DNA of 64,000 nucleotides from a virus (lineage: Duplodnaviria > Heunggongvirae > Uroviricota > Caudoviricetes), in the IMG/VR virus record IMGVR_UViG_3300042888_001115, positions 11,067 through 75,066 of that record, one strand, 5' to 3'. The position numbers and the translations under genes are program-made. Positions 1 to 25,058 of this stretch are shown here, piece after piece. Within the stretch, counting starts at the first letter, position 1, and each line of letters starts with the position of its first letter. Below the pieces are notes generated by a model. It searched no databases, had not been told where the DNA came from, and saw nothing but the letters and a program-made list of their open reading frames with translations.

Positions 1-1
1 T

Positions 2-739
2 TTAAAATATTTGATTATATAATTCCCAATATTGGGTATATTGAATTGCTTCTAATGTTGTTTCATTTAGATATTTATTCCATATCATTGGTTGATATGA
101 ATTCCAATTACAATTTTCACTACATAATGTAACATGTGAATTAGATACATCTACCATTTTTCCAGGATAACCTTCTACTGAAAATCTTCCTTTTTCAAAG
201 TTATCCCATCCATCTATACTAAATAATTTTTCTGTGTTAAACCAAAAAAATGTTCCACTATAATGCCAATTAGTTGTAACCCAAGGAGGACATGGTACAG
301 TTATTTGCATTATACCACTAAATGTTTTATCGGTTGTTAAATTATATTCAATATTAGATAAATAACGTTCTTCTAAATTAAAAAAATACATTGATAATAA
401 CCAAACCTTTACTACATTATTTTCAGCACCACCATTTTTACTTCCTTTATTATGTGCAAAAAATGTAAGTGAATTTTTGTTTTTAATTTCCTTTAAGGAT
501 TGTATAAAATATTCAGATTCTCTAGTTTCTGGATTATTTTGTACTAATTCAATTTCACAATTAGGAAATAAATTAATTAAATGTGAATTATTCCTTAATA
601 AATCATCTACTGCAATTTTAATAATTCTTTGTCCATTAAATAGTGGTAAATATTTATTTATTAAGGTGATATTATAATTTGCAAATTCGTTTATTTCCGA
701 ATTTTCAAAATAACAATAATATACTAAATTTTTAATCAT
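2..739 (-). CDS. hypothetical protein, 3' end beyond window
   Basis: 245-codon minus-strand ORF with no stop inside the window; N/K/I-rich composition like its neighbours. Confidence 0.5.
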   Translation of the reverse strand: MIKNLVYYCYFENSEINEFANYNITLINKYLPLFNGQRIIKIAVDDLLRNNSHLINLFPNCEIELVQNNPETRESEYFIQSLKEIKNKNSLTFFAHNKGSKNGGAENNVVKVWLLSMYFFNLEERYLSNIEYNLTTDKTFSGIMQITVPCPPWVTTNWHYSGTFFWFNTEKLFSIDGWDNFEKGRFSVEGYPGKMVDVSNSHVTLCSENCNWNSYQPMIWNKYLNETTLEAIQYTQYWELYNQIF

Positions 740-742
740 TTA

Positions 743-1327
743 TTATAACTTTTTAATTATTATTAAAACATCATCATATCTATTTTTATTTTTTCTCAAG
801 TCAATACATTCATAAGATATTCCTAATGAATTACATATTTCATCAAAGAATTGTTTTTCGTTATCCCAATCTTGTATATCTTCTATTATAAGTGTACCAC
901 CTTTTTTTACTTTTTCTAACCATTTTTGTATTGAAATTATTTGAGTTTGAATCGTATGTGGTCCATCATCTATTAAGTAATCTATTGAATTATCTTCAAA
1001 TTTATCAATAGTAGTATCTGAATATGCGGTATCTAATATTAGAGTTGTATTTGGTATTTTACTTACAAATTCTAAATCATTGTTATTCATTTCACTACCA
1101 TTATCAATACCTGTTATAGTTGAATTAATAAACCACTTACTCAATAAATTTAGAGAATCTCCTCTTCTAACACCAATTTCTACTATATTAAGTTTATCCA
1201 ATCTAACATCAGTAAATTCTGTTGAATAATATCCATTGATATAATCATGCAATGTTCCTTTGTCACTTTTTGGTTCTATTGAATCATAGAACTCTGAAAA
1301 TGTAATCATATTTTTTATTTTTTCCAA
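743..1327 (-). CDS. class I SAM-dependent methyltransferase
   Basis: Rossmann-like IVEIGVRRGDS motif followed by acidic LIDDGPH; length typical for a small-molecule or sugar MTase. Confidence 0.55.
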   Translation of the reverse strand: MEKIKNMITFSEFYDSIEPKSDKGTLHDYINGYYSTEFTDVRLDKLNIVEIGVRRGDSLNLLSKWFINSTITGIDNGSEMNNNDLEFVSKIPNTTLILDTAYSDTTIDKFEDNSIDYLIDDGPHTIQTQIISIQKWLEKVKKGGTLIIEDIQDWDNEKQFFDEICNSLGISYECIDLRKNKNRYDDVLIIIKKL

Positions 1328-2307
1328 AATGAATAAATGCCATTATCTAATTCGTAAGTATCCCAAACGAATTGGTTTCTTCTAGGTTGTTTTTGTGCCC
1401 ATTCCCACATATCTTTCAAACCATCTTCAAAATTGGTTTTATGTTCAAACCCTAATATATCAATAGATTTTTGCCAGGTTGGAATAGCATGTTTAACTTC
1501 ATGTCTACCCTCTTTATAAACCACTTCACCACCACCAATTACATTTCTTAATACTTCACATGCTTTATTAACTGTCCATTCCTCTACACCACCCAAATTA
1601 ATAATTTCTTTAGATGCGGTAGGTAATATAGCCGATTTCCATAATGGTTCAACAATATCATCAATACAACTAAATGCACGTGTTTGTTCACCATCACCAA
1701 ATATTGTCATTGGTAATCCGTTTAAATGTTGATACATCCAAATACCCAATACATTACGATACTTATCCCAAATATTTTGATTTCTACCATATACATTATG
1801 TGGACGGATAATACACCAATCTAAACCATGTTGCTCACCTGCAATTTGAATATCCATCTCACATCCATACTTAGCTACTCCATACGGGTCAATTGGTGTT
1901 TGTTGTTGCTTCTCATCAAATATTCCACCTTCACCATGTCCATATACTGCTAACGTAGATGTAAACACCAATCTTTTAACATTATGTTTAATACATTGAT
2001 TTAATATTCTTGCAGTTGCAACTAAATTGTTTTCATAATTGTATTGACGAATAAATGGAGATAATCCTTCTGCTGCATACGCTGCTAAATGAAACACATA
2101 ATCAAATTTATGATTTTCAAAACAATTTTCAATTGGATGTTCTACTAAGTTCATTTCCCAAAACGTAACTTTTGAATTCACATTTTCTTTGTAACCACCA
2201 GATAAATCATCTATCCCAACTACTTCTACATTTGGTACATTTTCAATTATATAATCTGCAAGTCTACTACCCAATAGCCCCGCTACACCTGTAATTAATA
2301 CTTTCAT
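1315..2307 (-). CDS. NAD-dependent sugar epimerase/dehydratase (SDR family)
   Basis: N-terminal MKVLITGVAGLLGS glycine-rich NAD fold, catalytic YGVAKYG (YxxxK), about 330 aa. Confidence 0.8.
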   Translation of the reverse strand: MKVLITGVAGLLGSRLADYIIENVPNVEVVGIDDLSGGYKENVNSKVTFWEMNLVEHPIENCFENHKFDYVFHLAAYAAEGLSPFIRQYNYENNLVATARILNQCIKHNVKRLVFTSTLAVYGHGEGGIFDEKQQQTPIDPYGVAKYGCEMDIQIAGEQHGLDWCIIRPHNVYGRNQNIWDKYRNVLGIWMYQHLNGLPMTIFGDGEQTRAFSCIDDIVEPLWKSAILPTASKEIINLGGVEEWTVNKACEVLRNVIGGGEVVYKEGRHEVKHAIPTWQKSIDILGFEHKTNFEDGLKDMWEWAQKQPRRNQFVWDTYELDNGIYSFWKK

Positions 2308-2708
2308 TAATCTTCAAATTTAATTGGTTCTAAATTGTTTTTTTGTCTATAATCATTTATTGCTGATTTTATAGCATCTTCTGCTAATACCGAACAATGG
2401 ATTTTAACTGGTGGTAGGTTTAATTCCTCTACCAATTCCATATTATCTAATTTAACCGCATCTTCCAATGTCATACCTTTTAACCACTCCGTTGCTAATG
2501 AAGATGCTGCTATTGCACTTCCACAACCAAATGTTTTAAATTTTGCATCAATAATTCTGTTATCTTCAACTTCTATTTGTAATCTCATTACATCACCACA
2601 TTCGGGTGCTCCTACTAGACCTGTACCCACGTTAGATTTACTTTTATCTAAAGTTCCTACGTTTTTTGGGTTTTGGTAATGGTCAATTACCTTTTCTGAA
2701 TATGCCAT
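2307..2708 (-). CDS. iscU: Fe-S cluster assembly scaffold IscU
   Basis: Nearly collinear with bacterial IscU: MAYSEKVIDHYQNPKNVG, GAPECGDVMRLQ, FKTFGCGSAIASS, PPVKIHCSVLAEDAIK; three conserved Cys plus LPPVK. Confidence 0.9.
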   Translation of the reverse strand: MAYSEKVIDHYQNPKNVGTLDKSKSNVGTGLVGAPECGDVMRLQIEVEDNRIIDAKFKTFGCGSAIAASSLATEWLKGMTLEDAVKLDNMELVEELNLPPVKIHCSVLAEDAIKSAINDYRQKNNLEPIKFED

Positions 2709-2714
2709 ATTATT

Positions 2715-3821
2715 TTAGTATGTTTTTGTTAAATCATCTTTGTTATCTACTTCGTTTAGATGGTCTCTATATAATTTGTTGTATTTGTGTATAGAATTAC
2801 CATTATTCATCCAATATTTCACTGCCGATGGGTTATTTATCCATAGATTTTTGTTTTCCCAATCAAATGTAGGTTCTGCGTAATAGGGTATTGGTAAGGG
2901 TTCTATGGGTTCATTTTGAGGAATATTTTCCACTATAACCTCATTTTGTTCCTTTTTTGTAGAATATTTTCCACTATCTCCGTATATTTGGTAATTTTTG
3001 TAGTTTTCTTCCATTAAATCATCTAAATTATCATATAAACCTAATTTTTCATCATTTTCTATTATTTCACCTAATAATTTTCTTTGTTTTGTCTTTTTAT
3101 CATCAATCATTCCGTTAAATGCGATAATTAACGCAACTGCCAATGGGTCAAACACAATTACAATCAAAAATATGAAGAATTTTACTACATTTTTCAATTC
3201 CATACCAAATGCTTCAGCTACAAAACGAAATCCACCCACTTCTTTCTCTAAATCTAAGTTTGTCACTTTGATTTTATTGATTTCATCGTTGCTTTTAGCA
3301 TTTTCGGTTTGTAAACTACTAATTTGTTTATTAATAGTTGCAACCTGTCTATCTTTACTATCAATTGAACGTAAAAGTCGGTTACTCACCTTACCTTTAT
3401 CTAAAATTGTGTTCTGAGTTGCCGACAATTGTCCTAATTGTGCCGACAACTGTCCGATTTGTGTTTCATTGGTAGTAATCTTAGTAGAATATACTGCAAT
3501 CTCTCTATCTACTTGTTGTAATTTAAGATTTTGCTGTTGGAATGCATTTGAAAGGTAACCAAATATACCAGCAGATGTAATTAGCATCAATAGTGCCACT
3601 GCTGATACTAAATACCACTTATTAAATCCACCAATATCATTCCATTTTTGTTTTAGATAAGTTGCTGCTACCAGTTTGGCAAATTCCAATGAACCTGCCA
3701 TTACCATAACAGATACAGCTGCTCCACTAAATAGAACACCCAATCCAGTTATAGAAAAAAATGCAGCACAACCAGCTATGATTAATGCTGATATTCCTAC
3801 TAACCATTTTAACCAATTCAT
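2715..3821 (-). CDS. membrane protein with central coiled-coil
   Basis: N-terminal hydrophobic segments, a QLSAQLGQLSAT repeat encoded by a direct DNA repeat near 3410-3450, and a second TM cluster. Confidence 0.5.
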   Translation of the reverse strand: MNWLKWLVGISALIIAGCAAFFSITGLGVLFSGAAVSVMVMAGSLEFAKLVAATYLKQKWNDIGGFNKWYLVSAVALLMLITSAGIFGYLSNAFQQQNLKLQQVDREIAVYSTKITTNETQIGQLSAQLGQLSATQNTILDKGKVSNRLLRSIDSKDRQVATINKQISSLQTENAKSNDEINKIKVTNLDLEKEVGGFRFVAEAFGMELKNVVKFFIFLIVIVFDPLAVALIIAFNGMIDDKKTKQRKLLGEIIENDEKLGLYDNLDDLMEENYKNYQIYGDSGKYSTKKEQNEVIVENIPQNEPIEPLPIPYYAEPTFDWENKNLWINNPSAVKYWMNNGNSIHKYNKLYRDHLNEVDNKDDLTKTY

Positions 3822-4003
3822 TATCCCTCTCTTTCTAGGTCAATTAAATCATTAACTTTACCTAATGCAAATAATAATTCATCAAACATCCTTACTGCAT
3901 CTGCATTAGAAATTTGTTTACTACCTTCTGCCGCTTGTTTTAAGAAGTTTGTTCTGATTTCAATTGCTTCTAAGTTTTGTCTAATTTGTACTTTGTATCT
4001 CAT
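3821..4003 (-). CDS. hypothetical small protein
   Basis: 60-aa ORF packed against its neighbour (overlapping stop/start). Confidence 0.4.
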   Translation of the reverse strand: MRYKVQIRQNLEAIEIRTNFLKQAAEGSKQISNADAVRMFDELLFALGKVNDLIDLEREG

Positions 4004-4015
4004 ATACTTTATTTT

Positions 4016-4873
4016 TTATAATAATTTGTTATTTTTATATAAATATTTGTTATTTAAAAATGTAACTATACCCTCCGCCCATAGTTGGTGGGCTTGAAAT
4101 CCAGGGTGTCCATCATTTATTATATCAACCCCAATTTCATCAAATATTCTTGTTTTAGTTTTTTCACTTAATGTAACAATATTATTTTCAAATTGACCAT
4201 TAATTTCTAATTTTAAAATTCTATTATTAAGAAAATTTGGAATAAATTTATTAAAATCAATTTGGTTAATAAAATAAGTGTAATTACCCGATATGTAATA
4301 TTCTATATTGTGTAATTTAAAAAATGAACATAATCCTAAATATTTTTTAGCAGTTTCTAACTCCCATTGAATTGGATTTATAAAACTATTAGAATATTGT
4401 TTAATTATAGAATCTATATTATCTTTATACACTATATTTGTCATAAACCCATCTGTAATCCAATTGAACGTAGTTGCTACACTATCTACTTTACCATTAT
4501 TATCATAATTAACATTTGCTACCAAATATTTATTATACTTGTTTGAAAATATATCTAATCTATTTATCGCGTCAGGTAATTCTAATATGAATAGGGTTTT
4601 TTTAACTTCATCTAGTGTATTTTTTAGAATGTAATCATATACTTTTCTAATAATTCTATCCGTACCACTACCACTCTTTGCATCGTTTATTATTTTAATC
4701 CCCATTTGTTTTCCAACCAACGTAGGATAACATACATCTACTTGAGATTCATACTCAAACCCATATTGTTTTTTATATGCTTCTCTAACGTGTTCTTTCT
4801 TTGCTTCAAATCCACCACCTTCGGTAAACGAGCAACCATTAAAATATATTTGATTAAATTTATTTTGTATCAT
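4016..4873 (-). CDS. SGNH/GDSL-fold hydrolase paralogue (1 of 5)
   Basis: Block I FNGCSFTEGGG near the N-terminus, SGSGTDR, and C-terminal DGHPGFQAH (DxxH). Paralogous to ORFs at 30219, 33296, 34077 and 35850. Confidence 0.5.
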   Translation of the reverse strand: MIQNKFNQIYFNGCSFTEGGGFEAKKEHVREAYKKQYGFEYESQVDVCYPTLVGKQMGIKIINDAKSGSGTDRIIRKVYDYILKNTLDEVKKTLFILELPDAINRLDIFSNKYNKYLVANVNYDNNGKVDSVATTFNWITDGFMTNIVYKDNIDSIIKQYSNSFINPIQWELETAKKYLGLCSFFKLHNIEYYISGNYTYFINQIDFNKFIPNFLNNRILKLEINGQFENNIVTLSEKTKTRIFDEIGVDIINDGHPGFQAHQLWAEGIVTFLNNKYLYKNNKLL

Positions 4874-4899
4874 AAAAAAAGGTAGTCTTTGTGACTACC
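4874..4899 (-). terminator. hairpin + T-run (intrinsic terminator or 5' attenuator)
   Basis: Gene-sense GGTAGTCACAAAGACTACC (perfect 7-bp stem) followed by TTTTTTT, immediately before the ATG at 4873. Confidence 0.45.
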
Positions 4900-4902
4900 T
4901 TT

Positions 4903-4915
4903 CAAATATACGAAA
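4903..4915 (-). promoter_or_regulatory. promoter -7-like motif TTTCGTATATTTG
   Basis: Gene-sense TTTCGTATATTTG matches the Bacteroidota -7 consensus TAnnTTTG; member of the recurring motif class. Confidence 0.35.
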
Positions 4916-4925
4916 TATAACTCAG

Positions 4926-5306
4926 TTATCCAACTTTAATGGATACTTTTTTTGGTTTCTTTTCTTCTATCTTAGGTAAAGAGATATGTAATATACCATC
5001 TTTTACCGTTGCTAATGTAGCACTAAGGTCCCAATTAGTTCCAATGTTTAATGATTCATCAACCGGAAGTGCAATCGCATTCCAAATTTTATCATCGGTT
5101 TCTTTTTCTATTGATTTAACTTTAATAAAGCTTTCCTCAATTGTAATTTCTAATGTTTCCTTTGTTTGACCAGGAACTGCTAATCCAATTCGTAAGATAT
5201 CTTCGGTTATATCAACTACTACTTGTTTGTGGGTTGATGTAGCTGTTTTTGTTTTTGGTGTTTCGAAAAAATCTTCAAATAATTTGTTGTAATCTACTAA
5301 ATACAT
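4926..5306 (-). CDS. small heat-shock protein, Hsp20/alpha-crystallin family
   Basis: Alpha-crystallin domain pattern, GILHISLPK, C-terminal I-x-I/V tail (VSIKVG), 126 aa. Confidence 0.7.
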   Translation of the reverse strand: MYLVDYNKLFEDFFETPKTKTATSTHKQVVVDITEDILRIGLAVPGQTKETLEITIEESFIKVKSIEKETDDKIWNAIALPVDESLNIGTNWDLSATLATVKDGILHISLPKIEEKKPKKVSIKVG

Positions 5307-5381
5307 AATTTAATGTTTTTTTTGTTAATAATATTCTATATAGTTCAAATACTATACCATTGGGTTTAATCTGACAATTTG

Positions 5382-6056
5382 TTAGAATTTACCAACATTA
5401 AATGAAAATTTGTCATCTTTTACCGACTGTCTTTCAATTACCGTACTCATATGGTCTGCCCAATGCATAATATACTGAATATTTGATTTAAGATATTTTG
5501 ATGTATCATATACTTTATAATATTTTTCATTGTCCTCATCGTATAGACCATCCGTAAGTTTTATACCAAAATATTCATTCTCATTGATTGCAATACCATA
5601 TTGTGATAATGTAAATAATGTTCTATCAGTTATTGCCATAAAAGAGTTTTTTTCATTTCTTTTGTATAACTCACCTCTATTTTCAATATGCCATTTAGAA
5701 TCATTTGGTGCATAATGTAGTTCTTCTTTAGTACCCAATTTACCCAAATCATGATGTATTGCAACAAATAGTAATTCTTCTTCGGTGAAATCACATACTC
5801 CACCCGCTTCTTCAAATGTTTTTTTCATTTTTAATGCGTTCTTACATACATTAAAGATATGGTCAATATACCCACCCTCATATGCATTGTGATAGTTTTT
5901 ATTACCACTTGCAGGTGATACCATTAAGTTTCCACCTAATTCATCATCCGAGTACATAAACAAAAGTTTTTCTAATCTTTCGCCTGTAAAATATTTGTTA
6001 ACGATGGCTAGAAACTTATCGTAGTTCTGCTTTAATTCTGATTCTGTCTTTTTCAT
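5382..6056 (-). CDS. HD-domain phosphohydrolase
   Basis: VAIHHDLGKLGT (HD motif) with an upstream His (YIDHIF). Confidence 0.6.
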   Translation of the reverse strand: MKKTESELKQNYDKFLAIVNKYFTGERLEKLLFMYSDDELGGNLMVSPASGNKNYHNAYEGGYIDHIFNVCKNALKMKKTFEEAGGVCDFTEEELLFVAIHHDLGKLGTKEELHYAPNDSKWHIENRGELYKRNEKNSFMAITDRTLFTLSQYGIAINENEYFGIKLTDGLYDEDNEKYYKVYDTSKYLKSNIQYIMHWADHMSTVIERQSVKDDKFSFNVGKF

Positions 6057-6355
6057 TTTGTTAAATTTTCTTTTGTTAAGATTTTATATAAAAGTTCAAT
6101 TTCTTCTTCAGTTTCTAACATTGGTAAGTTATCAAATAGGGTTACCAAATATTCACCCTCATTCAAATCCATATTTTTCCACTCATCACTTGCTATTGAT
6201 ATTAACGTAGGTCTTTCACTTACATCATCATCTTCTTTTGGTAAAGGTAATATCCAATAATAAAAATCAGTTTCACCATCACTTTCTTCTATTCGTATCG
6301 CTCCCCATCTTTTAAAGGAATGGTCGGTAATCGGTGTTTGTGGCATTGTTATCAT
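6053..6355 (-). CDS. hypothetical acidic protein
   Basis: 100-aa ORF overlapping the upstream stop. Confidence 0.45.
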   Translation of the reverse strand: MITMPQTPITDHSFKRWGAIRIEESDGETDFYYWILPLPKEDDDVSERPTLISIASDEWKNMDLNEGEYLVTLFDNLPMLETEEEIELLYKILTKENLTK

Positions 6356-6379
6356 AACTCAAATATACAACTTTTTTTC

Positions 6380-6988
6380 CTAATCACAAATAATTCTAAT
6401 GGATTTTTGAATTGAATCTAGTTTAGAATTTGAAAATAAATTACTATTTGGGGTTTCAATTGTATATTTTGCTTTGCCTATAATTGTAATTGTATCACCT
6501 TTCATTTTATATATTGGTGCACCCATAGTATTTATTTCACCGGAAAAATATCCTAATTGTGATGTACTATTTACAATAGGAATTATTTGGTCTTGCTGTG
6601 AAACTAAAGAAGGTAGTTGTGATATTTGTAATTGACCTGTATATGGATTAAAATACGTTTTAACCACTCTACCAATCGTATCGCCGGCTTTTAATATCCA
6701 ATAGTGAGAACTACTCCATTCTATTCTACCATTAACCGGAGAAGGTGTTTTATTTGGTTTGCCATCTACTAAGAATTTACCGGTGATTCTACTTAACGTT
6801 TGGTTTGTTAGAGTAGATAACGATAAATGATAAAATCCATTATTATCCAATGGTAAACTTTGCTTACCATTTGAACTTAATGCAGAATCAATTGTAAATG
6901 TAATTGTGTGAGTTTGTGGTATTGGTGTAACTATATCTTTATTACACGCCATTAAAGCCATAATACCTAAAAAGGGTAAAATCTTCAT
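6380..6988 (-). CDS. lipoprotein
   Basis: Signal peptide MKILPFLGIMALMAC with lipobox Cys; preceded by a promoter motif 22 nt upstream. Confidence 0.5.
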   Translation of the reverse strand: MKILPFLGIMALMACNKDIVTPIPQTHTITFTIDSALSSNGKQSLPLDNNGFYHLSLSTLTNQTLSRITGKFLVDGKPNKTPSPVNGRIEWSSSHYWILKAGDTIGRVVKTYFNPYTGQLQISQLPSLVSQQDQIIPIVNSTSQLGYFSGEINTMGAPIYKMKGDTITIIGKAKYTIETPNSNLFSNSKLDSIQKSIRIICD

Positions 6989-7012
6989 ATCTTAGAGTTT
7001 AGTGTTTATACT

Positions 7013-7023
7013 TAAAGATACGA
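7013..7023 (-). promoter_or_regulatory. promoter -7-like motif GTCGTATCTTTAAGTATA
   Basis: Consensus motif about 22 nt upstream of the lipoprotein ATG; TTG about 20 nt further upstream. Confidence 0.4.
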
Positions 7024-7070
7024 CTTTTTTGTGGTTTTTCCAATTATTTGAGAGTATTTGGTATAAACAA

Positions 7071-7081
7071 TTGATTATCAA
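7071..7081 (-). promoter_or_regulatory. palindromic TTGATTATCAA site (weak copy of the upstream 20-mer)
   Basis: TTGATTATCAATTACTTA about 48 nt upstream of the promoter motif. Confidence 0.3.
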
Positions 7082-7085
7082 TTAC

Positions 7086-7523
7086 TTATAATTGTTCAAA
7101 TCCTAATTTTGTGAATACGTTTATTGACCGTATGTTCCAATCATCTATATTGGTTAATATGTTCGTATTGGTATAATTTTGTATAACATAAAATAACATA
7201 TCCGTTGCTCCATACATTCTACTATAATTTGTAGTTTTTATAAATACATTGTAAATATAATAAGTTGTAGAATCTATACATTTTAACCAACAATATCCAA
7301 CAATTTCACCTTTATAATAAGATACAAACATTTTATCACCCCGTTCAATCCTATCTTCTGCAGCTTGGAGATTAAACATACCATCCCAATTTATTTCAGA
7401 GTTGAATAAATCAATACAATATTGAATAATAGTATCATCTGATATTTCTACTATCTTAAAATCCGAATGAATATTACGTTGTATTAAATCTTCATATTTT
7501 AATTTATATTCTATCATACTCAA
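7086..7523 (-). CDS. GNAT-like acetyltransferase (tentative)
   Basis: About 145 aa, YYKGEIVGYCWL and C-terminal FTKLGFEQL resembling GNAT motifs A and B. Confidence 0.4.
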   Translation of the reverse strand: MSMIEYKLKYEDLIQRNIHSDFKIVEISDDTIIQYCIDLFNSEINWDGMFNLQAAEDRIERGDKMFVSYYKGEIVGYCWLKCIDSTTYYIYNVFIKTTNYSRMYGATDMLFYVIQNYTNTNILTNIDDWNIRSINVFTKLGFEQL

Positions 7524-7565
7524 CTCCTAAATAATTAAAATTTTTCGGATTTAATTTAAAATCAA

Positions 7566-8075
7566 TCATATTAATCGTTTATCTATATGTGTGTGTCGTA
7601 ATCTTTCTGGTGAATTTACATCAAATATATCTTCATAATATGTTATATCAATTTTTAATATTTTACTAAGTTCTAATAACTTAGTATAATAGTTATTCAC
7701 CATTTCTTGTACTTCCGTATAGTTTGGTGTTGGTTCCCAAATATATTGCATCCCGCCATTTAAATGAGTACGTTCTCTGTTATATCTTAAGTATGCAATA
7801 CTTTCTGCACAAGATTTCAAATCCCTCCTACCTAGTAGCACTACTTTGTCAAACCTGCCGGCTAAGTCAACCCACCATTTCATTTCATCGGTTATCCCGG
7901 TAGGTATATGCCACATTATAATCTTAACTATGGTATTATCATCCTTGTCATTTGGTAAATAATCACTACCATTTTTAGTTGGTTCGGATACCCATTTTAA
8001 ATTATGTTCGGCTGCTAATTTTAGCAGTAAAGAACTAGTACCGGTTCTAGCCATTGCAATTATTACTATTTTCAT
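7566..8075 (-). CDS. sulfotransferase-like P-loop protein
   Basis: N-terminal AMARTGTSSL (5'-PSB-like) and LLGRRDLKSCAES (3'-PB-like R..S). Confidence 0.45.
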   Translation of the reverse strand: MKIVIIAMARTGTSSLLLKLAAEHNLKWVSEPTKNGSDYLPNDKDDNTIVKIIMWHIPTGITDEMKWWVDLAGRFDKVVLLGRRDLKSCAESIAYLRYNRERTHLNGGMQYIWEPTPNYTEVQEMVNNYYTKLLELSKILKIDITYYEDIFDVNSPERLRHTHIDKRLI

Positions 8076-8578
8076 TATATTAAAGATTTTTTAAATGTCA
8101 AATTCTCAACACATAAAAATAAAATTAAAGACCACCGCTCACCTGTTTTTATTTCCATAACTTCATGTTCGGTGTGACTGTTGAAACAATAAATTTCGCC
8201 TCTTTTTTTTGATAATAATTTATGTGGCTCATATAAATAAAAATCGCCCCCGGTGTATTCTTCATTTAGATTAGTGCCAACCGCCCATATTCTGTTTTTA
8301 TTTGTATCAGAATGTCTTGTAAATTTGTCGCCAATATTAAATTTATGCAAACCTATGTGTGTGGGATAATTATTAACAATAACATTTTTATTATCCATAA
8401 TCAATTTACCAATCATTCTATCAAATATCCATTTATAATTTTGAATATTTGGTATTTGCCATCCGGTGTAGTTAACCGCACTATTATTAGGATACCCACC
8501 ATCGGTTTTTATTACCGTCAATACTTTACTTAAATTTATGATATCTAAACATTCTTTTGGTGTAAAATAATTTTCCAT
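8075..8578 (-). CDS. 2OG-Fe(II) oxygenase (prolyl-hydroxylase-like)
   Basis: HxD...H triad candidates FTRHSDTN and NSHTEHEV, then GERWSL (R-x-S). Confidence 0.55.
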   Translation of the reverse strand: MENYFTPKECLDIINLSKVLTVIKTDGGYPNNSAVNYTGWQIPNIQNYKWIFDRMIGKLIMDNKNVIVNNYPTHIGLHKFNIGDKFTRHSDTNKNRIWAVGTNLNEEYTGGDFYLYEPHKLLSKKRGEIYCFNSHTEHEVMEIKTGERWSLILFLCVENLTFKKSLI

Positions 8579-8582
8579 ATGA

Positions 8583-9182
8583 TTATATTAATGAATTTGT
8601 TTTTTTTGTAATAATATCACCCATTCTATATTTGTTTGTAGTATCTAATAACTCTTTGTAATATAACTCATTATATTCTATTTCTAATTCATTAAATAGT
8701 GGATTAAAATTTCCATAATATAAATCTTCGTAATAAAAAATTGGTAAATTATTTAGTGTTGCAAAATTAAAAAGTGTTTCATTTAAAAAACTATATCTAT
8801 CGTATGTTGTTTGGAATTCGGCATCCGTAATATTGTAAAGGTTATAGATACGTGGTGTATTATTTAAAAATGATGCCTCTTTGTGTACAAGAATTGAACT
8901 TTCAACTTGTTCTTTTTGATTTTTTCTTAAAAGGATTACTATCTTATCAAAATCATTTACCAATGTATCTAATGAGACCGGTAACGTTCTATATGCTGAT
9001 TTTACGAATATATTTCGTTTAGTAATTAAATCGGAATATTCATTTTTATTTTTATGTACGTTTTCAACCATCCATTCAAACCAAGGCTCATTGAAGCATT
9101 CATATTCAGTTTTAATTTTTTCGAAATATTTTAGTATTGAGGTCGAACCACATCTAGGAGTATATAGAAGTAAAATTTTCAT
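8583..9182 (-). CDS. sulfotransferase-like P-loop protein (paralogue)
   Basis: YTPRCGSTSIL and LLRKNQKEQVESS motifs; same architecture as 7566..8075. Confidence 0.45.
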   Translation of the reverse strand: MKILLLYTPRCGSTSILKYFEKIKTEYECFNEPWFEWMVENVHKNKNEYSDLITKRNIFVKSAYRTLPVSLDTLVNDFDKIVILLRKNQKEQVESSILVHKEASFLNNTPRIYNLYNITDAEFQTTYDRYSFLNETLFNFATLNNLPIFYYEDLYYGNFNPLFNELEIEYNELYYKELLDTTNKYRMGDIITKKTNSLI

Positions 9183-9704
9183 TTATAGTTTAACTTTAAT
9201 TCCATTAATCCACACAATTCTATATGTAGAACAATTTAAAACATTTGTCTCATGTTCATGTATTGATGCGAAAAAATAAAGACAATCACCCTCATTTATT
9301 TTATAAACTACATTATTAATAATCAAATCACCACCAGCATCTCCGGTTGAAGTTTTTATTATAAAATGTAAACTCTCGGTATCATCGTATTTTGGGTCTT
9401 TGTGTTTTATTAACTTAGAACCATTGAAAGATATTGCACATATTATACCATCTTTACCTTGTGGTACATTTTCATTTTCTGAAAAATTAAGTTTTTCTTT
9501 TATTTTTTTAAACGCATTTACAATTAAATCCGGATAATCATATTTAACATCATTTGTAAATCTGGTAGTTTTTCTATTATTTGCCGCTCTACCTATTTGA
9601 AAAATGTTAGTATTATGGTTATCTAATGCCCATTTATTTAAAATATTACATTCATCATGTGTTAATACAGATGGGATGATTTCAATTGAATTTGTATCAA
9701 TCAT
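9183..9704 (-). CDS. 2OG-Fe(II) oxygenase-like (paralogue)
   Basis: IKHKDPKYDD (HxD) and ASIHEHET, then YRIVWI; second copy of the oxygenase. Confidence 0.5.
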   Translation of the reverse strand: MIDTNSIEIIPSVLTHDECNILNKWALDNHNTNIFQIGRAANNRKTTRFTNDVKYDYPDLIVNAFKKIKEKLNFSENENVPQGKDGIICAISFNGSKLIKHKDPKYDDTESLHFIIKTSTGDAGGDLIINNVVYKINEGDCLYFFASIHEHETNVLNCSTYRIVWINGIKVKL

Positions 9705-9706
9705 AT

Positions 9707-9988
9707 TTAAAATAAAGTTTTTTCCACTTTTTGTTTTGGAAAATATAGAGTATCAACACTTTCCCATTTTTTCAATGGACAATCATTAAAATCTGCTGAA
9801 AATATTTTTTTAGTTATTGGGCAACCACATTCGTTGCATATAACACCAATATCTAATTTAGTAGTGAGTACCTTTCTAGACGGACATACTTCACATATTT
9901 CATTTCTTTTTTCTGCTAGTAGTTTTTGATTTTCAGAAGGTTTATACGCTGTAACCCATGCATTGAAAATTTTTTTAAAATTCAACAT
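9707..9988 (-). CDS. Zn-ribbon small protein
   Basis: CEVCPSRK...CNECGCP, two CxxC pairs. Confidence 0.45.
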   Translation of the reverse strand: MLNFKKIFNAWVTAYKPSENQKLLAEKRNEICEVCPSRKVLTTKLDIGVICNECGCPITKKIFSADFNDCPLKKWESVDTLYFPKQKVEKTLF

Positions 9989-10003
9989 GTTTTTAAATTT
10001 TTA

Positions 10004-10081
10004 TTAAGAATTAGAACTAACAATTAATGCACCCATTTGTGTCATTATTGTATTTATTGTTTGAGTTTGAGTTGTTGTCAT
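10004..10081 (-). CDS. candidate 25-aa peptide ORF (MTTTQTQTINTIMTQMGALIVSSNS)
   Basis: ATG-initiated ORF with double TAA stop that fills most of the 115-nt gap between the Cys-rich protein and the Zn-ribbon gene; not in the track (<60 aa). Confidence 0.2.
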   Translation of the reverse strand: MTTTQTQTINTIMTQMGALIVSSNS

Positions 10082-10103
10082 TTTTAATTAATTTTTAATA
10101 TTA

Positions 10104-11654
10104 TTAAGATTTTGGAGCTACCGGTGGTACACAGTTAGCAAAATTAACACACTTACATGGAGCGGAATTGGCGTAGCAGGGGAAGGTGCTGAACGTTTGT
10201 TTAGTACAGGCCTCACCCTTTGCGCAGTCGGATTGTGAACAAGAAGCTTTCCTCTCGGAACAACTCGCACCAATATTATGTTCAATTGCAACAAATGAGG
10301 TATTGTCCATAGTTTGTGTTAAAAATAAATGTTGTCTTTCTACACTTATTGCCCATCCACTAAATATGGTATTTGTTCTTACAATTGTCGAAACTTCTTT
10401 TAGGACAGTTGTTAATGTTTCATTTTCAGTATTAATTAATATTACAGAATCACCAATTTGTATAGATTCATCTGACCCCAAACTTCCCAATGAAACAAAT
10501 TTAACATTATTATTTCTAACGATTAAATAATTAGAAGAAATTGTATCTTCCCAATAAGTAGTATCAGTAAATACAAGCTTAACATATTCTACAATTACAG
10601 AAACCTTTTCTTTTGCAGTTACCTCATTTGTACTGTATACTGTATTATTTACAAAATCTTCATATGTTATACCAAAATCAGCTGTATCCAATGTTAAATC
10701 AATATTATTTGGATTTGGAATATCAATTGTTTTTAATAAATCACCTACTTGTAAATCCAACGCAGTTTTGAATGAACCATCTGCCATTTCAACCGTATCG
10801 GTATCTAATAATTTAGGTGCTGCGAACAAATATTCATTATTTAAATATCTATTTTTATATGTATTTACTATCTCAAATGTTTCTGCATTATATTCTACAT
10901 CAGTATCTAATACTGCTCCGGTCAACGATGTGTAACCACCTAATGATATACTTTCTAAATTTGGAGGAAATAATAAATTTAATCCTCTAAAAACTTGTAT
11001 TTGATTTTGATATAAATTGTTCAAATCTAAATGAAATTCCATCAAAAAATACTCGTTGTTAACATTTTGTAAAACAATATTTAATTCCTCATTAGTTGAT
11101 ACTTTAAACAACTTAGGGTAAATATTCTTATCATATGCCGCACCAACTGCTTTTAAAATAAAATTTGGATGAATACCATTATCTGGTATTGTAGTTATGT
11201 TGTTTACAATTTCATTTGTTTCGTTAAGATATGCAAATTGAGAACCAAATGATGAATTTTTAATTAAATTCATAAAATTAATTTTATTTGCACAATACGT
11301 ATCATCTACCAATGCGGTAGTATCATATGCACTTCTAATAATCAACGTTGTATCGTTATCTTCAACATAAGGTACTGTTATAGAATTTGGACTAGAAATC
11401 ATATTTTTAAATTCAAATCCTAAAATGGTAGATAATTCAGTTAATTTGTTAGATAGTGGCTCTAAATTTCCGATGTATACTACCTTAGTAAATGTATTAT
11501 TACTAATGAAATTAGATAGTTCTGTTAAATCTAAGGAGGTTTCAGTACCTTCTAATGTAACATATATCCAGCCTAAATTAGTGTTTATTTCAATTGGTTT
11601 TAAATCACCATTTTTATCGTACATAAAGTCCGAACCTATTAATACTGTTCTCAT
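10104..11654 (-). CDS. large protein with Hint-like segment and Cys-rich C-terminal tail
   Basis: 516 aa; TVEMADGSFKTALDLQVGDLL resembles a Hint N-terminal block and VAIEHN precedes the tail; last ~50 aa hold 11 Cys and are encoded by a locally GC-rich stretch (10104-10270). Confidence 0.55.
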   Translation of the reverse strand: MRTVLIGSDFMYDKNGDLKPIEINTNLGWIYVTLEGTETSLDLTELSNFISNNTFTKVVYIGNLEPLSNKLTELSTILGFEFKNMISSPNSITVPYVEDNDTTLIIRSAYDTTALVDDTYCANKINFMNLIKNSSFGSQFAYLNETNEIVNNITTIPDNGIHPNFILKAVGAAYDKNIYPKLFKVSTNEELNIVLQNVNNEYFLMEFHLDLNNLYQNQIQVFRGLNLLFPPNLESISLGGYTSLTGAVLDTDVEYNAETFEIVNTYKNRYLNNEYLFAAPKLLDTDTVEMADGSFKTALDLQVGDLLKTIDIPNPNNIDLTLDTADFGITYEDFVNNTVYSTNEVTAKEKVSVIVEYVKLVFTDTTYWEDTISSNYLIVRNNNVKFVSLGSLGSDESIQIGDSVILINTENETLTTVLKEVSTIVRTNTIFSGWAISVERQHLFLTQTMDNTSFVAIEHNIGASCSERKASCSQSDCAKGEACTKQTFSTFPCYANSAPCKCVNFANCVPPVAPKS

Positions 11655-11689
11655 AATTTTAGTTTTCCTTATTATTTCTTATAAATATA

Positions 11690-12082
11690 CTAACTTTGTA
11701 ATTTAGTAGTTCTTTTGGTATATTTTCTTTTTGGTTTTGGTAGCGGTGGATTATCAATAGATGTGATTAAATCCCTTATTGCACCACATTGTTCGTATTG
11801 TTCTTTAGATACAAAGTAATCCATCATTTTATTTAGAAGGTCCTTATACTCACTCTTATTGATTGTAGCAAACATTTTACTATCGGTAAACTTAATAATT
11901 GCAACTTCTTCTAAATTTTCTTCAATAGCTCCTTTTAATATTTGTAAAATCCAGGGATATAAGGTATCACCATTCATAGAAATATAGTTTGAAACAGCAG
12001 GAGATGCATCTTCATCAAAGTATTTTCTCCAATTAGTTTTTGCGTACATATCGGTAATTTTTAATAATTTGTTAATATCCAT
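11690..12082 (-). CDS. hypothetical protein
   Basis: 130-aa ORF. Confidence 0.5.
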   Translation of the reverse strand: MDINKLLKITDMYAKTNWRKYFDEDASPAVSNYISMNGDTLYPWILQILKGAIEENLEEVAIIKFTDSKMFATINKSEYKDLLNKMMDYFVSKEQYEQCGAIRDLITSIDNPPLPKPKRKYTKRTTKLQS

Positions 12083-13293: not shown

Positions 13294-13671
13294 CTATACT
13301 AATTTTTTCTCTCTACTTTTCCAATACATCGGTCCATAATGATGCGCAATCTCCTCACCTTCTTCTATATCTTTAATTGAATAAAATTCCATTATATTTA
13401 ATTCTTTCGATTTTATCCTCCAATCACAATTTGGGTGTGAACTATGATTATAAATTGAACCGTACCCAAAAGGTAAGTATGAAGTATCATTATCGTTAAC
13501 GTCGGTGAATACATAATCATACGATGGGTGGGTTGCTACCACAAATAATTTTATAAAATAGCATGTTTCTATAATTGTTCCGTTTGGTATAAATTCGCCG
13601 GCAAACACACCAAATCCCATTACTTCATCAATATAACGTACCTCTAATTTTGTTTGTGGTTTTATAACCAT
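13294..13671 (-). CDS. SET-domain protein lysine methyltransferase (minimal viral-type SET)
   Basis: GFGVFA (GxG), IYNHSSHPNC (NHSCxPN), EEIAHHYG (ELxFDY-like); 125 aa, like the minimal viral and bacterial SETs. Confidence 0.8.
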   Translation of the reverse strand: MVIKPQTKLEVRYIDEVMGFGVFAGEFIPNGTIIETCYFIKLFVVATHPSYDYVFTDVNDNDTSYLPFGYGSIYNHSSHPNCDWRIKSKELNIMEFYSIKDIEEGEEIAHHYGPMYWKSREKKLV

Positions 13672-21641: not shown

Positions 21642-21962
21642 CTAATTATTCATTTGTAATATTAACTCTATATTGTGTATAAACATATCTTTCCAACGGA
21701 TTTGTGCAATGGTTAATTGTTTTCTACGTTGTGGCTCATTACTATTGTATAAGGTATAGTAGTTATATGATGTATTCGTTCCACCATTTACCTTATTCCT
21801 TTGTAGTATTAGTGATTCATCTACTATCCCTTTATTAGTAGAACGTATATGTATTTGATAATAGTCTTCGTATTCATATACACCTTCTATATTATACCCA
21901 TCAGTTGTAAGGCTTAATACCCTTTCACCTTTCAGTTTACTTCTATTATGTATTATTAGCAT
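21642..21962 (-). CDS. MLxIxN-family small protein
   Basis: N-terminal MLIIHNRSKLKGE. Confidence 0.45.
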   Translation of the reverse strand: MLIIHNRSKLKGERVLSLTTDGYNIEGVYEYEDYYQIHIRSTNKGIVDESLILQRNKVNGGTNTSYNYYTLYNSNEPQRRKQLTIAQIRWKDMFIHNIELILQMNN

Positions 21963-22064
21963 ATCCTTTACTTTATTAGTTTTATTATTTCTATATACAC
22001 TACTATCATTATTAGTGTTATTATCATTACGCTTATAGTTAGTGTTAGTAGTGACATAGTGTTC

Positions 22065-22298
22065 TTATACATTCCTTCCTTCTATACATAAACTACATAG
22101 ACCATCTGAATTTAATCTTATATGATGTTTAGTACAATAATCTATTTCTATACTATGTGTATTATATGTTGTATTATTATCTGAACTACCGCTATTATTT
22201 CCTTTGCCACTCTTTTCTCTTATCCAATTATACATCCAATCGTTTGTGTTATTCACATCAATTATTTTTATATCTTTTTGTGTGTATCTATAATTCAT
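22065..22298 (-). CDS. small Cys/His-containing protein
   Basis: CTKHH...CSLC possible Zn-binding. Confidence 0.35.
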   Translation of the reverse strand: MNYRYTQKDIKIIDVNNTNDWMYNWIREKSGKGNNSGSSDNNTTYNTHSIEIDYCTKHHIRLNSDGLCSLCIEGRNV

Positions 22299-22305
22299 AT
22301 CTTAT

Positions 22306-22461
22306 TTATTTTTTCCATTCACCACTCTTTAATAAGTTTGTTATATAATCCATACTTTGTAATGTAGTAAGGTATACGGGTGCATCATACGTTTTACCTT
22401 TGTATATTACATACGTCGGATGCCATACCATACTACCATTATCTAATTCTAATTTATTCAT
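22306..22461 (-). CDS. small hypothetical protein (51 aa, MNKLELDNGSMVWHPTYV...)
   Basis: ATG ORF not in the track, in the gap between neighbouring ORFs. Confidence 0.3.
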   Translation of the reverse strand: MNKLELDNGSMVWHPTYVIYKGKTYDAPVYLTTLQSMDYITNLLKSGEWKK

Positions 22462-22636
22462 ATTCACTTTCTATTAAATTATTCTTATGAATCCATTTAC
22501 TTAACTCTAAAATTAATTTAACACTCTTATCATCTAATCTTTTACTTTGATTGACTAACCTTTCAATGGATTCTTTACTCAATAGGATGTACTCGTCTAT
22601 ACCATCCATATTACTAACTCTATTTACTATATTCAT
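22454..22636 (-). CDS. small hypothetical protein
   Basis: 60-aa ORF. Confidence 0.35.
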   Translation of the reverse strand: MNIVNRVSNMDGIDEYILLSKESIERLVNQSKRLDDKSVKLILELSKWIHKNNLIESEYE

Positions 22637-22776
22637 ATTATCTACGTTTGATTTGTTTATTGATTATCTTATTAAGGTATATAGTTGATACCCTACTTGC
22701 CTTACCCCTTTGTCTTATACCCCATATTAAATTATTGATTAAGAATATACTCTTTATACTATGTGCTCTATTCATA

Positions 22777-23121
22777 TTAATTATCGTTTTCAATTATTGT
22801 TTTCAATTCCCATATCATACTATCCATCGTATAAATATTTTCTATTCTTATGATATATCGTCTCAATACTCCTATTCCAACTTCAATTAAGTTTATTACA
22901 TATTCATACTCACTTGCTTTGTCCGGCCTTTCCCTTTCAATCTTCATTGTCAATTCCTTACCTTGGTATTTGTATTTGAATGAGAATGGGTCTTCATGCC
23001 TTATAATCATTTCATATGCCGATTTGGTTTCCTTCATCCGCCATACCTTCCATGATTCGGTAAAAGAATGTGTTATAATACGTTCCCCTTTTAATTTATG
23101 ATAGTTTTGTATTGTTAGCAT
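22777..23121 (-). CDS. MLTIxN-family small protein (start trimmed to MLTIQNYHKLKGE)
   Basis: The track's N-terminal extension overlaps the upstream gene; the internal Met restores the family N-terminus and abuts the upstream stop. Confidence 0.45.
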   Translation of the reverse strand: MLTIQNYHKLKGERIITHSFTESWKVWRMKETKSAYEMIIRHEDPFSFKYKYQGKELTMKIERERPDKASEYEYVINLIEVGIGVLRRYIIRIENIYTMDSMIWELKTIIENDN

Positions 23122-23126
23122 AAGGT

Positions 23127-23405
23127 TTATATTATATTTGCCATAAAATGTGTCATAGTAAGTAGAAACTTTTGACAATCCATTACATCCTTTCTTTGTA
23201 CCCACATTTGTTGTCCCTCATACGTCATACAATAGTAATCCCTATGTGGATGGTGCCGTTGTGGTGGGTGTATACGGCTTAGAGTGACCTTATTTAGTGG
23301 GTATCCGTTATCAATCCAAAATACATATGCCCAATTCGTTGTCTCTACCGATATGGTTGCTTTCGTATATAATCTTATCCTATCTATATTATGTATTGTC
23401 AACAT
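23127..23405 (-). CDS. MLTIxN-family small protein
   Basis: MLTIHNIDRIRLY. Confidence 0.5.
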   Translation of the reverse strand: MLTIHNIDRIRLYTKATISVETTNWAYVFWIDNGYPLNKVTLSRIHPPQRHHPHRDYYCMTYEGQQMWVQRKDVMDCQKFLLTMTHFMANII

Positions 23406-23726
23406 TTATATTGTATTTAATATTTTCTCAATTTTATCCCTAAATTTATCCGGTGTACTTAAACTTTCTTTTGTATAGTGATACATCTGGCCGTCAACTT
23501 CAATTCCATAAAAACTACAATCCTTATTTTCAAGAGGATTAAAAACTATCGTTGCCGTTTTATGTAAGGTTATATTTTTTCTTACCAAATGTGGTGGTGC
23601 GACCTCTCTTATTGAGAAATGTGTAACCTCACTTGTAGTATTATCCCAACCTTTGAAATACCATCCTTTGCCTTTTACATTTAATGAATACCCATTTATT
23701 TTATGGATGTTTTTAAGTATTAGCAT
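23406..23726 (-). CDS. MLTIxN-family small protein
   Basis: MLILKNIHKINGY. Confidence 0.5.
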   Translation of the reverse strand: MLILKNIHKINGYSLNVKGKGWYFKGWDNTTSEVTHFSIREVAPPHLVRKNITLHKTATIVFNPLENKDCSFYGIEVDGQMYHYTKESLSTPDKFRDKIEKILNTI

Positions 23727-24030
23727 CTTCGTCTTTTTTTATATTTGCAATTATACAATTCATATAATAGATTAGCCCTACGGGTGATATATCAATAGGG
23801 CGTATTAGGACCTCATATAATTTACCATTACGATTTGTTTTCATTCTATACATGCCCATTACTTCATCCTTATTCCTATCAAATGTAACGTACCATTGTG
23901 TTGATTTGTAATGGCCTACATTAGTTAGTACAAATTGATATTCGGTAGGGGCTTCAATTGCTTCATACACTTCCCACTTATCCGTTATTTGTTTGCCGTT
24001 AATTTTTTCTATGTTTCTTATCTTTAGCAT
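23713..24030 (-). CDS. MLTIxN-family small protein
   Basis: MLKIRNIEKINGK. Confidence 0.5.
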   Translation of the reverse strand: MLKIRNIEKINGKQITDKWEVYEAIEAPTEYQFVLTNVGHYKSTQWYVTFDRNKDEVMGMYRMKTNRNGKLYEVLIRPIDISPVGLIYYMNCIIANIKKDEDANT

Positions 24031-24031
24031 A

Positions 24032-24337
24032 TTATTTCATTATCATTATCATTTCAACCGCTCTTATAAAAGTTTGTTTATTACTTATTTGTTCTACCTT
24101 TAATAACATACTATTAATAGGAGTAGCTTCATTCCATATTATATAACCCTTATCCGTTTTAAATCTATTCAATACAATTTTAATATCACTATACGTTTTA
24201 TTTATATGTCTCAAATGAATATGATATTGTTCGTTACCCTCTTGATTCCAACTCCATGTGTTAAGTACATAATAAACTCCCGTACCACCATCAATTCTTT
24301 GATTGATTAGTGTAAACATATTTTCTATTGTAAGCAT
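24032..24337 (-). CDS. MLTIxN-family small protein (start trimmed to MLTIENM)
   Basis: Family motif at the internal Met. Confidence 0.45.
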   Translation of the reverse strand: MLTIENMFTLINQRIDGGTGVYYVLNTWSWNQEGNEQYHIHLRHINKTYSDIKIVLNRFKTDKGYIIWNEATPINSMLLKVEQISNKQTFIRAVEMIMIMK

Positions 24338-24385
24338 TGTATATATAGTTTTTACTATCAAAAAATTTAGGTAACGACACTTTTT

Positions 24386-24404
24386 CCCCCAACCCCCGCC
24401 CGCG
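24386..24404 (-). repeat. G/C-rich island (gene-sense CGCGGGCGGGGGTTGGGGGG)
   Basis: Followed in gene-sense by GTCGTTACCTAAATTTTTTGATAGT, as in the copy at 26557. Confidence 0.4.
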
Positions 24405-24728: not shown

Positions 24729-24740
24729 ATCATTTTTGTT

Positions 24741-25055: not shown

Positions 25056-25058
25056 TAC

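Follow-up and report, generated by a model that had tools for sequence, protein, structure and literature searches.

The subject of this report is an iscU gene, predicted to encode an iron-sulfur (Fe-S) cluster assembly scaffold, in a viral DNA segment of 64,000 nucleotides (IMG/VR record IMGVR_UViG_3300042888_001115, positions 11,067 to 75,066). We call this whole segment the window. The gene is an open reading frame (ORF) at positions 2307–2708 on the minus strand. The ORF probably encodes a functional IscU-type scaffold and is part of the genome of a large tailed phage from freshwater, a reading built on sequence comparisons. The gene is neither contamination nor an assembly chimera. Its donor was probably a member of the Bacteroidota, and more than 580 IMG/VR contigs carry IscU of the window type.

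The iscU Gene Product

The ORF is intact, with an ATG start, a TAA stop, and 133 residues between them. It matches Pfam family NifU_N (PF01592) over 125 of 127 profile positions (E = 8.6e-51; 171.8 bits, cut-off 22). The NCBIfam model TIGR01999, "Fe-S cluster assembly scaffold IscU", is matched over 123 of 124 positions with 213.4 bits, above its curated cut-off of 192.4. Related families were tried and rejected: the score is 122.7 bits for NifU proper (cut-off 273.3), 164 bits for Clostridium-type NifU (cut-off 188), and 66.9 bits for SufU (cut-off 92.5). The protein is a single domain of 133 residues, and the family profile search found in it neither the middle nor the C-terminal domain of NifU. 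Solved structures align from end to end, namely those of Haemophilus influenzae IscU (1Q48; E = 7e-59), human ISCU (about 1e-56), and Escherichia coli IscU (2e-54). The alignment to 1Q48/1R9P spans residues 1–127 with one single-residue gap, and from it the window protein is predicted to adopt the α/β fold of IscU.

The residues that define the scaffold are in place; all are encoded on the minus strand. The N-terminus reads MAYSEKVIDHY. Cys37-Gly38-Asp39 (2592–2600) provides both the first ligand of the cluster and the Asp to which the cluster owes its lability. It is preceded by Glu36 (2601–2603), which stands in place of the proteobacterial Ala. Cys62 (2523–2525), the equivalent of E. coli Cys63, is the second ligand. 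The chaperone recognition motif LPPVK (residues 98–102) is followed by His104 and the third Cys ligand, Cys105 (together 2394–2417). C37, D39, C62, H104, and C105 are all kept in 85/85 viral copies. C37, D39, and E36 are unvarying in these 85 copies and in 80/80 Bacteroidota copies, proteobacterial outgroups having Ala at position 36. LPPVK and Tyr3 do not vary in any copy compared, and the window copy also has Tyr11 and Lys102. Tyr3, Tyr11, and Lys102 correspond to residues that contact the cysteine desulfurase IscS in the 3LVL complex.

A preliminary description of this DNA, which gave no strand, had called the ORF collinear with canonical IscU, including the three Cys ligands, LPPVK, and YSEKVIDHY. 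Profiles, structures, and residue positions agree on this. The assignment to canonical IscU is confirmed at the level of sequence, the match being far beyond chance.

The Donor Lineage

Cellular homologues were sought in 185,579 species-representative genomes with peptide patterns derived from the query, and the figures given for them refer to the matches listed. The best are from metagenome-assembled genomes (MAGs) and isolates of Chitinophagaceae (Sediminibacterium, Ferruginibacter, Flavihumibacter), followed by Mucilaginibacter, at 79–84% identity. Proteobacterial IscUs are about 72% identical to the window IscU. Glu36 is common to the viral and Bacteroidota proteins, as opposed to Ala in proteobacteria. 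The preliminary description had left the donor to be sought among Bacteroidota and proteobacteria; identity, Glu36, and gene order all favor Bacteroidota.

The gene order is as follows. The bacterial arrangement is iscS-iscU-iscA in 79/80 loci. In the viruses, iscS, hscB, and hscA were found in 0/87 loci (within 10 kb), and none of the three lies anywhere in the window. The missing association with iscS is a difference of context, as one would expect of a gene in a virus, and not a trait of the protein itself. Downstream of iscU, a gene for an A-type carrier (PF01521) begins after 23–210 nt in bacteria, and in 23 viral contigs it abuts iscU (−4 or −1 nt). Co-capture of iscU and iscA is plausible. 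The viral and bacterial proteins also differ by an indel: a loop insertion of one or two residues is absent in 85/85 viral copies and present in 79/80 bacterial copies. Viral IscUs have 131–136 residues, except for a 156-residue variant at four loci (L062, L068, L081, L082), and bacterial ones have 137–139.

In a neighbor-joining tree (100 bootstraps), 55 of the 57 unique viral sequences fall together in a single clade nested within the Chitinophagaceae, with 9% bootstrap support. Exclusion of Sphingobacteriaceae has 47% support, and the tree gives no placement of the donor below the order level. This low resolution is due to the short and highly conserved IscU protein. Because clade support is poor, a single capture rests mainly on the shared indel and gene order. 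The donor was probably a member of the Bacteroidota and, below that level, of the Chitinophagales; given the low resolution of the tree and a genome scan limited to the matches listed, we claim it only to the level of Bacteroidota.

The Fe-S Module

In the viral loci, the 10 kb downstream of iscU contain a carrier gene in 77/87 cases, a ferredoxin gene in 34/87, and a radical S-adenosylmethionine (radical-SAM) gene in 7/87. The order in close relatives of the window is IscU, a 4Fe-4S ferredoxin (90–113 residues), a 178-residue ORF, a variable set of sugar-modification genes, the A-type carrier, and peptide deformylase. In other relatives the carrier abuts IscU, followed by GroEL and ferredoxin. 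The viral carriers score above the TIGR00049 cut-off and retain the Cys...CGC motif. The viral ferredoxins are divergent and FdxA-like, scoring under equivalog cut-offs.

Both components lie just beyond the window, at opposite ends. A contig that is 100% identical to window positions 1–3186 (L170) has a PF01521/TIGR00049 carrier gene 1.3 kb past the left edge, at positions 4487–4819 of that contig, then genes for peptide deformylase and a carbamoyltransferase. Two contigs identical to the right end (L174, 99.94%; L175, 100%) carry a gene for a 105-residue FdxA-like 4Fe-4S ferredoxin, which ends about 330 nt past the right edge and occupies positions 2253–2570 of L174.

Two further genes were seen near the IscU–carrier pair. 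On two related phage contigs (L164, 11452–12633; L010, 7211–8395), an ORF between IscU and the A-type carrier specifies a 393-residue protein; it matches RuBisCO_large and is probably RuBisCO-like. A full-length GroEL (phrog_5725, E = 6e-144) lies from a few hundred bases to a few kb past the pair on two others (L167, 11304–12923; L168, 3529–5148), and GroEL is likewise downstream of the pair in L007, L038, L049, L052, L053, and L080.

Proposed Origin and Role

We suggest the following course of events. An ancestral phage most likely took the iscU-iscA part of a Bacteroidota (Chitinophagales-like) iscS-iscU-iscA operon and left iscS behind. IscU would then have been held under strong purifying selection throughout the lineage. 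In many genomes a 4Fe-4S ferredoxin gene would later have been inserted between iscU and the carrier gene. In the sub-lineage of the window, sugar-modification genes would have been inserted at this place, and recombination in the 3′ part of the iscU gene would have removed the adjacent ferredoxin gene.

During infection, the phage IscU is proposed to dock on the host cysteine desulfurase. Since the phage loci have no desulfurase, sulfur would have to come from host IscS. The scaffold would receive persulfide sulfur and build [2Fe-2S] and [4Fe-4S] clusters on Cys37, Cys62, Cys105, and Asp39. The clusters would be passed, with chaperone aid via LPPVK, to the phage A-type carrier. The carrier would in turn deliver them to apo-clients such as the phage ferredoxin, the radical-SAM enzymes of relatives, and those host Fe-S enzymes on which the phage depends. 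The overall outcome would be a greater capacity for Fe-S assembly while host gene expression is shut down. These steps are inferred from the conserved residues and from established ISC biochemistry. To judge by the strong purifying selection, the supply of Fe-S clusters may be what limits phage replication in hosts that are, apparently, freshwater Bacteroidota.

The preliminary description had likewise proposed that the gene boosts Fe-S protein maturation during infection, with radical-SAM enzymes among the possible clients. This remains the best reading, with a carrier and a ferredoxin encoded just outside the window and radical-SAM genes near the iscU of some relatives. The part concerning clients did not hold for the window itself: Pfam and PHROG scans and Cys-motif searches found no Fe-S client enzyme in the 64 kb. 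The radical-SAM (CX3CX2C) and ferredoxin Cys patterns, applied to the 123 window ORFs, gave only zinc-ribbon-like CXXC pairs.

This lack of clients counts against the proposal, as do several other points. The client search spans the 64-kb window of a larger genome. Between viral and bacterial carriers, identity reaches 66% at most, as against 83% among the bacterial carriers. The tree resolves the monophyly of the viral copies poorly, at the bootstrap value given above. The cellular matches are those listed by a search with query-derived patterns, and closer homologues could exist.

A more specific version of the proposal can be put forward tentatively, as one that we ourselves hold to be rather doubtful. 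It is that IscU, the FdxA-like 4Fe-4S ferredoxin, and the A-type carrier form a minimal, desulfurase-free assembly line that descends from a captured Bacteroidota iscU-iscA pair, plugs into host IscS, and preferentially matures phage clients, with the ferredoxin possibly acting as electron donor. If true, the inserted ferredoxin would supply electrons for cluster formation or for the reductive coupling of [2Fe-2S] to [4Fe-4S], replacing the classical [2Fe-2S] Fdx of isc operons. This would amount to a virus-specific rewiring of the ISC pathway.

Among the alternatives, takeover of the host pathway survives best, and we consider it unlikely. Here the phage IscU would act as a decoy that competes with host IscU for IscS and chaperones. 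It would hold back the Fe-S biogenesis of the host or channel sulfur or iron elsewhere, e.g., toward tRNA thiolation or iron buffering, instead of increasing the supply of clusters. A phage without a desulfurase of its own must engage host IscS in any case, and the conservation of LPPVK and of the presumed IscS-contact residues would suit a decoy well. On the other hand, all the cluster ligands, including Asp39, are unvarying, and a pure decoy has no need of them. The linkage to carrier and ferredoxin genes in the proportions given above also resembles a productive assembly line. Ligand conservation and this linkage make a decoy the less likely role, and productive Fe-S assembly is the one we prefer.

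Age and Maintenance of the Gene

Among the viral copies, the median nonsynonymous divergence (dN) is 0.09, the median synonymous divergence (dS) is 1.4, and the median dN/dS is 0.06. Of the 3570 viral pairs, 748 have a saturated dS, and in comparisons with the nearest bacterial genes dS is at or beyond saturation over the first 48 codons. Near-saturated dS, a dN/dS of about 0.06, and the presence of the gene on hundreds of contigs show that the acquisition is old and that strong purifying selection has kept the gene. Its cellular origin and its maintenance by purifying selection in the virus agree with a viral auxiliary metabolic gene.

These values bear on the suggestion, made in the preliminary description, that the gene could be a recent host capture. 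A best listed cellular match of 84%, dS at or near saturation, and hundreds of diverged viral contigs speak against it. The related explanation, that iscU is a recent and selectively neutral passenger with no role in infection, is very improbable. It draws on the IscU protein being almost indistinguishable from the cellular consensus. Against it stand the low dN/dS across deep synonymous divergence of the viral copies, the saturated dS relative to the closest bacterial copies, and the number of viral contigs with the gene. In addition, the loop deletion is common to all viral copies, and the base composition of iscU is shifted toward that of the phage.

The Phage and the Placement of iscU in Its Genome

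We conclude that the source of the window is a large-genome tailed phage. All window ORFs of at least 130 residues are on the minus strand, and minus-strand ORFs make up 94% of the window. Its GC content is 26–34%. No tRNA, rRNA, or housekeeping genes were found in it. Most window ORFs have no Pfam or PHROG match, and a PHROG scan of the ten largest matched only the ligase and a CobS-like ATPase. The window genes with matches include those for a phage-type ATP-dependent DNA ligase, the CobS-like AAA ATPase, Gp88, Hsp20, and SGNH-like hydrolases. Profile scans detected no structural gene (capsid, portal, terminase) in the 64 kb.

The assignment to tailed phages comes from a related contig. On an 88-kb IMG/VR contig (L057) that is syntenic with window positions 2.3–11 kb, IscU and a baseplate wedge gene are 8 kb apart. 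Other IscU contigs encode DNA polymerases, DnaB, ribonucleotide reductase (RNR), thymidylate synthase, endolysins, GroEL, peptide deformylase, and a virion structural protein. Related IscU contigs reach 237–287 kb, with a GC content of about 30%. A megablast search of window positions 1–12000 against 50,697 phage records gave no match, which indicates a lineage without a close sequenced isolate. A tblastn search of the phage records with a conserved 1016-residue neighbor protein (L054) returned nothing useful. The habitat appears to be freshwater (lake, river), as judged from sample and MAG names alone.

Other low-GC elements, e.g., a eukaryotic giant virus, a plasmid, or a reduced symbiont genome, are highly improbable sources of the window. 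The lack of capsid, portal, and terminase genes, the absence of a PHROG match for most large ORFs, and the negative megablast result could be read in that direction, and one related contig (L021) was binned in a giant-virus MAG. The baseplate wedge gene on a syntenic contig argues against it. It is joined by the endolysins, virion structural protein, DnaB, phage-type DNA polymerases, bacterial-type peptide deformylase, and GroEL of neighboring contigs, and by the phage-type ligase, CobS-like ATPase, and Gp88 of the window. The 94% coding density on one strand, with no tRNA, rRNA, or housekeeping genes, also speaks for a phage.

That iscU itself belongs to this genome is borne out by synteny and by independent assemblies. 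All 123 window ORFs were compared by tblastn with 162 loci. About 25 viral contigs have 8–15 flanking genes in common with the window, in the same order; all 80 bacterial loci have IscU alone in common. Four independent assemblies, from Logan (L170), ENA (L172), and JGI (L171 and L173), span iscU and both of its neighbors at 94.9–100% identity. The exact window IscU protein is found on 17 contigs from several samples. The flanking GC content is 0.25–0.37 at viral loci versus 0.30–0.54 at bacterial loci. Thus, viral genes lie on both sides of iscU within a viral genome, as is required of a viral auxiliary metabolic gene.

The view that a bacterial IscU fragment was mis-joined to phage DNA, a possibility raised by the preliminary description, can draw on the high conservation of IscU, on its 79–84% identity to Chitinophagaceae genes among the matches listed, and on an iscU GC content (0.32–0.40) somewhat higher than that of its flanks, yet it is refuted by both junctions recurring in the independent assemblies, by synteny over the diverged viral contigs, by an adjacent iscS in 0/87 viral versus 79/80 bacterial loci, and by the tight coupling to phage genes (1-nt overlap downstream, 6-nt spacer upstream), and we give it next to no credence.

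Neighbors and the 3′ End of iscU

Upstream of iscU lies a gene for a 368-residue membrane and coiled-coil protein with no assigned function (2715–3821, minus strand); its stop is 6 nt before the iscU start. The downstream neighbor (1315–2307, minus strand) encodes an NAD-dependent sugar epimerase/dehydratase (Pfam Epimerase, 1.3e-41). The iscU stop overlaps the epimerase start by 1 nt in the sequence TAATG (2305–2309, minus strand). The epimerase gene is the first of a five-gene sugar-modification insert that parts iscU from the A-type carrier gene. In relatives, the ferredoxin gene and the 178-residue ORF occupy this 3′ junction.

A terminator-like hairpin at 4877–4903 (minus strand) is the sole one in positions 1–7200. 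It likely marks the start of the co-directional gene array that holds iscU, on weak evidence, as one site was seen where 1.6 are expected by chance. A sigma-70 promoter scan did no better than chance level.

The adjacency of iscU and the membrane protein gene is kept in close relatives, and the position of the cassette varies more widely. In contigs with the membrane protein, IscU is within 4 kb downstream in 16 of the 76 that are informative, and in 11 of these within 14 nt. Twelve of those 16 belong to the 15 closest contigs, defined by at least 76% identity in the membrane protein; of the remaining three of these 15, two end too early to tell and one (L186) has no IscU. IscU is located elsewhere in at least one genome, that of a 251-kb contig (represented by L013 and L234).

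The C-terminal tail of the window IscU is variable. It comprises residues 122–133, QKNNLEPIKFED, encoded at 2310–2345 (minus strand), and is a likely site of a recombination breakpoint. Residues 1–118 are 99% identical to those of two relatives (L004 and L005) whose IscU has 136 residues; the ferredoxin gene is directly after iscU in L005 and about 0.5 kb downstream in L004. The window tail (KNNLEPIKFED) and the direct IscU–epimerase junction match three others (L024–L026), whose residues 1–118 are only 84% identical. Because the two parts match different relatives, the window iscU looks mosaic, which fits a recombination event in its 3′ end that removed the adjacent ferredoxin gene.

Other Genes of the Window

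The MoxR/CobS-like AAA+ ATPase (phrog_249; 59044–60276) adjoins a gene for a 714-residue protein (60452–62596), a putative von Willebrand factor A (vWA) protein in which a DGSGSM (MIDAS-like) motif was seen by eye. The pair resembles CobS/CobT. A pair of this kind lies within 5–8 kb of IscU in more distant relatives (L028, L031, L042, L043, L048, L077).

At least 13 small ORFs (92–116 residues) in tandem clusters at 21642–28201 and 41586–46034, minus strand, have an N-terminal "MLTIKNI(D/E)K"-like motif and no Pfam match. They look like a rapidly diverging family of paralogues, defined by the motif; BLASTP links one pair only. Five SGNH/GDSL-like ORFs (4016–4873, 30219–31046, 33296–34090, 34077–34802, 35850–36521) have an N-terminal "GCSxS/GDSFT" motif. 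They form two BLASTP paralogue families, with only a weak Pfam match to Lipase_GDSL.

HAD_SAK_2 and cREC_REC domains, known from "Swiss-army-knife" RNA-repair systems, occur along with an ATP-dependent ligase and a metallophosphoesterase (41058–41582, 42188–43327, 63309–63746, 36661–37371). Together these could be a nucleic-acid repair toolkit. There are also a SET-domain protein (13294–13671), a UvdE UV-damage endonuclease (25434–26306; E = 5e-63), and a 2OG-Fe(II) oxygenase (8075–8578), of which relatives have up to three in tandem (L165).

Two large paralogous ORF pairs (385–458 residues) without a family match are at 15310–16506/16497–17873 and 37343–38500/53967–55223, with a further ORF at 52877–53974. 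Both proteins of the first pair have the motif "LGKPFI(H/N)TDP". These large ORFs may be glycosyltransferase-like, a guess prompted by the many sugar-modification genes nearby. Lastly, a 516-residue ORF (10104–11654) whose C-terminal tail is rich in Cys matches nothing in Pfam or PHROG, and counterparts at 28–47% identity are found in L012, L055, and L057.

Comparison with Known Systems

With the IscUs of E. coli and H. influenzae (1Q48, 2L4X, 3LVL), the window protein shares about 70–72% identity over the full length, the three Cys residues, Asp39, the His, LPPVK, and YSEKVIDHY. The phage copy differs in having Glu36 and a variable tail, and there is no iscR, iscS, hscB, hscA, or [2Fe-2S] fdx nearby. 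The IscUs of the Chitinophagaceae and Sphingobacteriaceae iscS-iscU-iscA operons are the closest among the matches listed, and they share Glu36 and a carrier gene directly downstream. The viral copies are set apart from them by their shorter length, the absent loop insertion, lower GC content, the absence of iscS, and the divergence of their carriers. The N-terminal domain of NifU and SufU have the NifU_N fold family in common with the window IscU, which scores under their curated cut-offs.

Among phage records, a tblastn search with IscU returned 16, and only Phage C48C1 (OQ984149), of isolate type, was confirmed as a genuine phage with a similar IscU. This IscU is of the proteobacterial type, with Ala36, and is 72% identical to that of the window. 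The record "Acinetobacter phage MD-2021a" (H1, locus L002; CAKLQH020000011.1) is bacterial DNA mislabeled as phage: it contains a complete chromosomal iscR-iscS-iscU-iscA-hscB-hscA-fdx operon, flanked by ppiD and hupB. The IscU match in CAKLQF020000009.1 (H2) is identical to that in H1. Other records were set aside as unannotated fragments or as SufU-like, at about 30% identity. Literature searches found no paper on the Bacteroidota-derived phage lineage described here and nothing relevant on "C48C1".

Phage IscU and carrier genes have already been reported in marine viruses (2011–2022), from viromes as well as from complete environmental genomes. Nishimura et al. (2017; PMC5332604) counted, in a set of environmental viral genomes from the sea, six that have an IscU of gammaproteobacterial type and fourteen that have a carrier. 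Both iscU and erpA occur in HMO-2011-type phages (PMC9038755), and in a study of Lake Baikal a viral ferredoxin was connected with a viral gene for Fe-S assembly (PMC7678222). The statement in the preliminary description that such genes are unusual phage cargo is therefore too strong, given these reports and the abundance of the gene in IMG/VR.

The published cases (PMC5332604, PMC9038755, C48C1) resemble the window in having a lone scaffold, a lone carrier, or both, in a tailed phage without a desulfurase. Radical-SAM or ferredoxin client genes are often on the genome, and the proposed role is alike. They differ in lineage: the published marine IscUs group with gammaproteobacteria, whereas that of the window lineage is apparently of freshwater and derived from Bacteroidota. 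In this lineage, moreover, the iscU–carrier pair resembles the remnant of an operon, often with an FdxA-like ferredoxin between the two. The lineage should be useful, as it is abundant and has a recognizable donor operon for comparison. It also offers natural variants of the module: iscU abutting the carrier gene, the ferredoxin gene in the middle, iscU and carrier gene parted by sugar-modification genes, and the ferredoxin gene relocated within the genome. Genes for Fe-S assembly recur among viral auxiliary genes. The current view, that phages carry Fe-S scaffold genes, is left as it is, and its reach now takes in another habitat, another donor phylum, and a group of large-genome phages.

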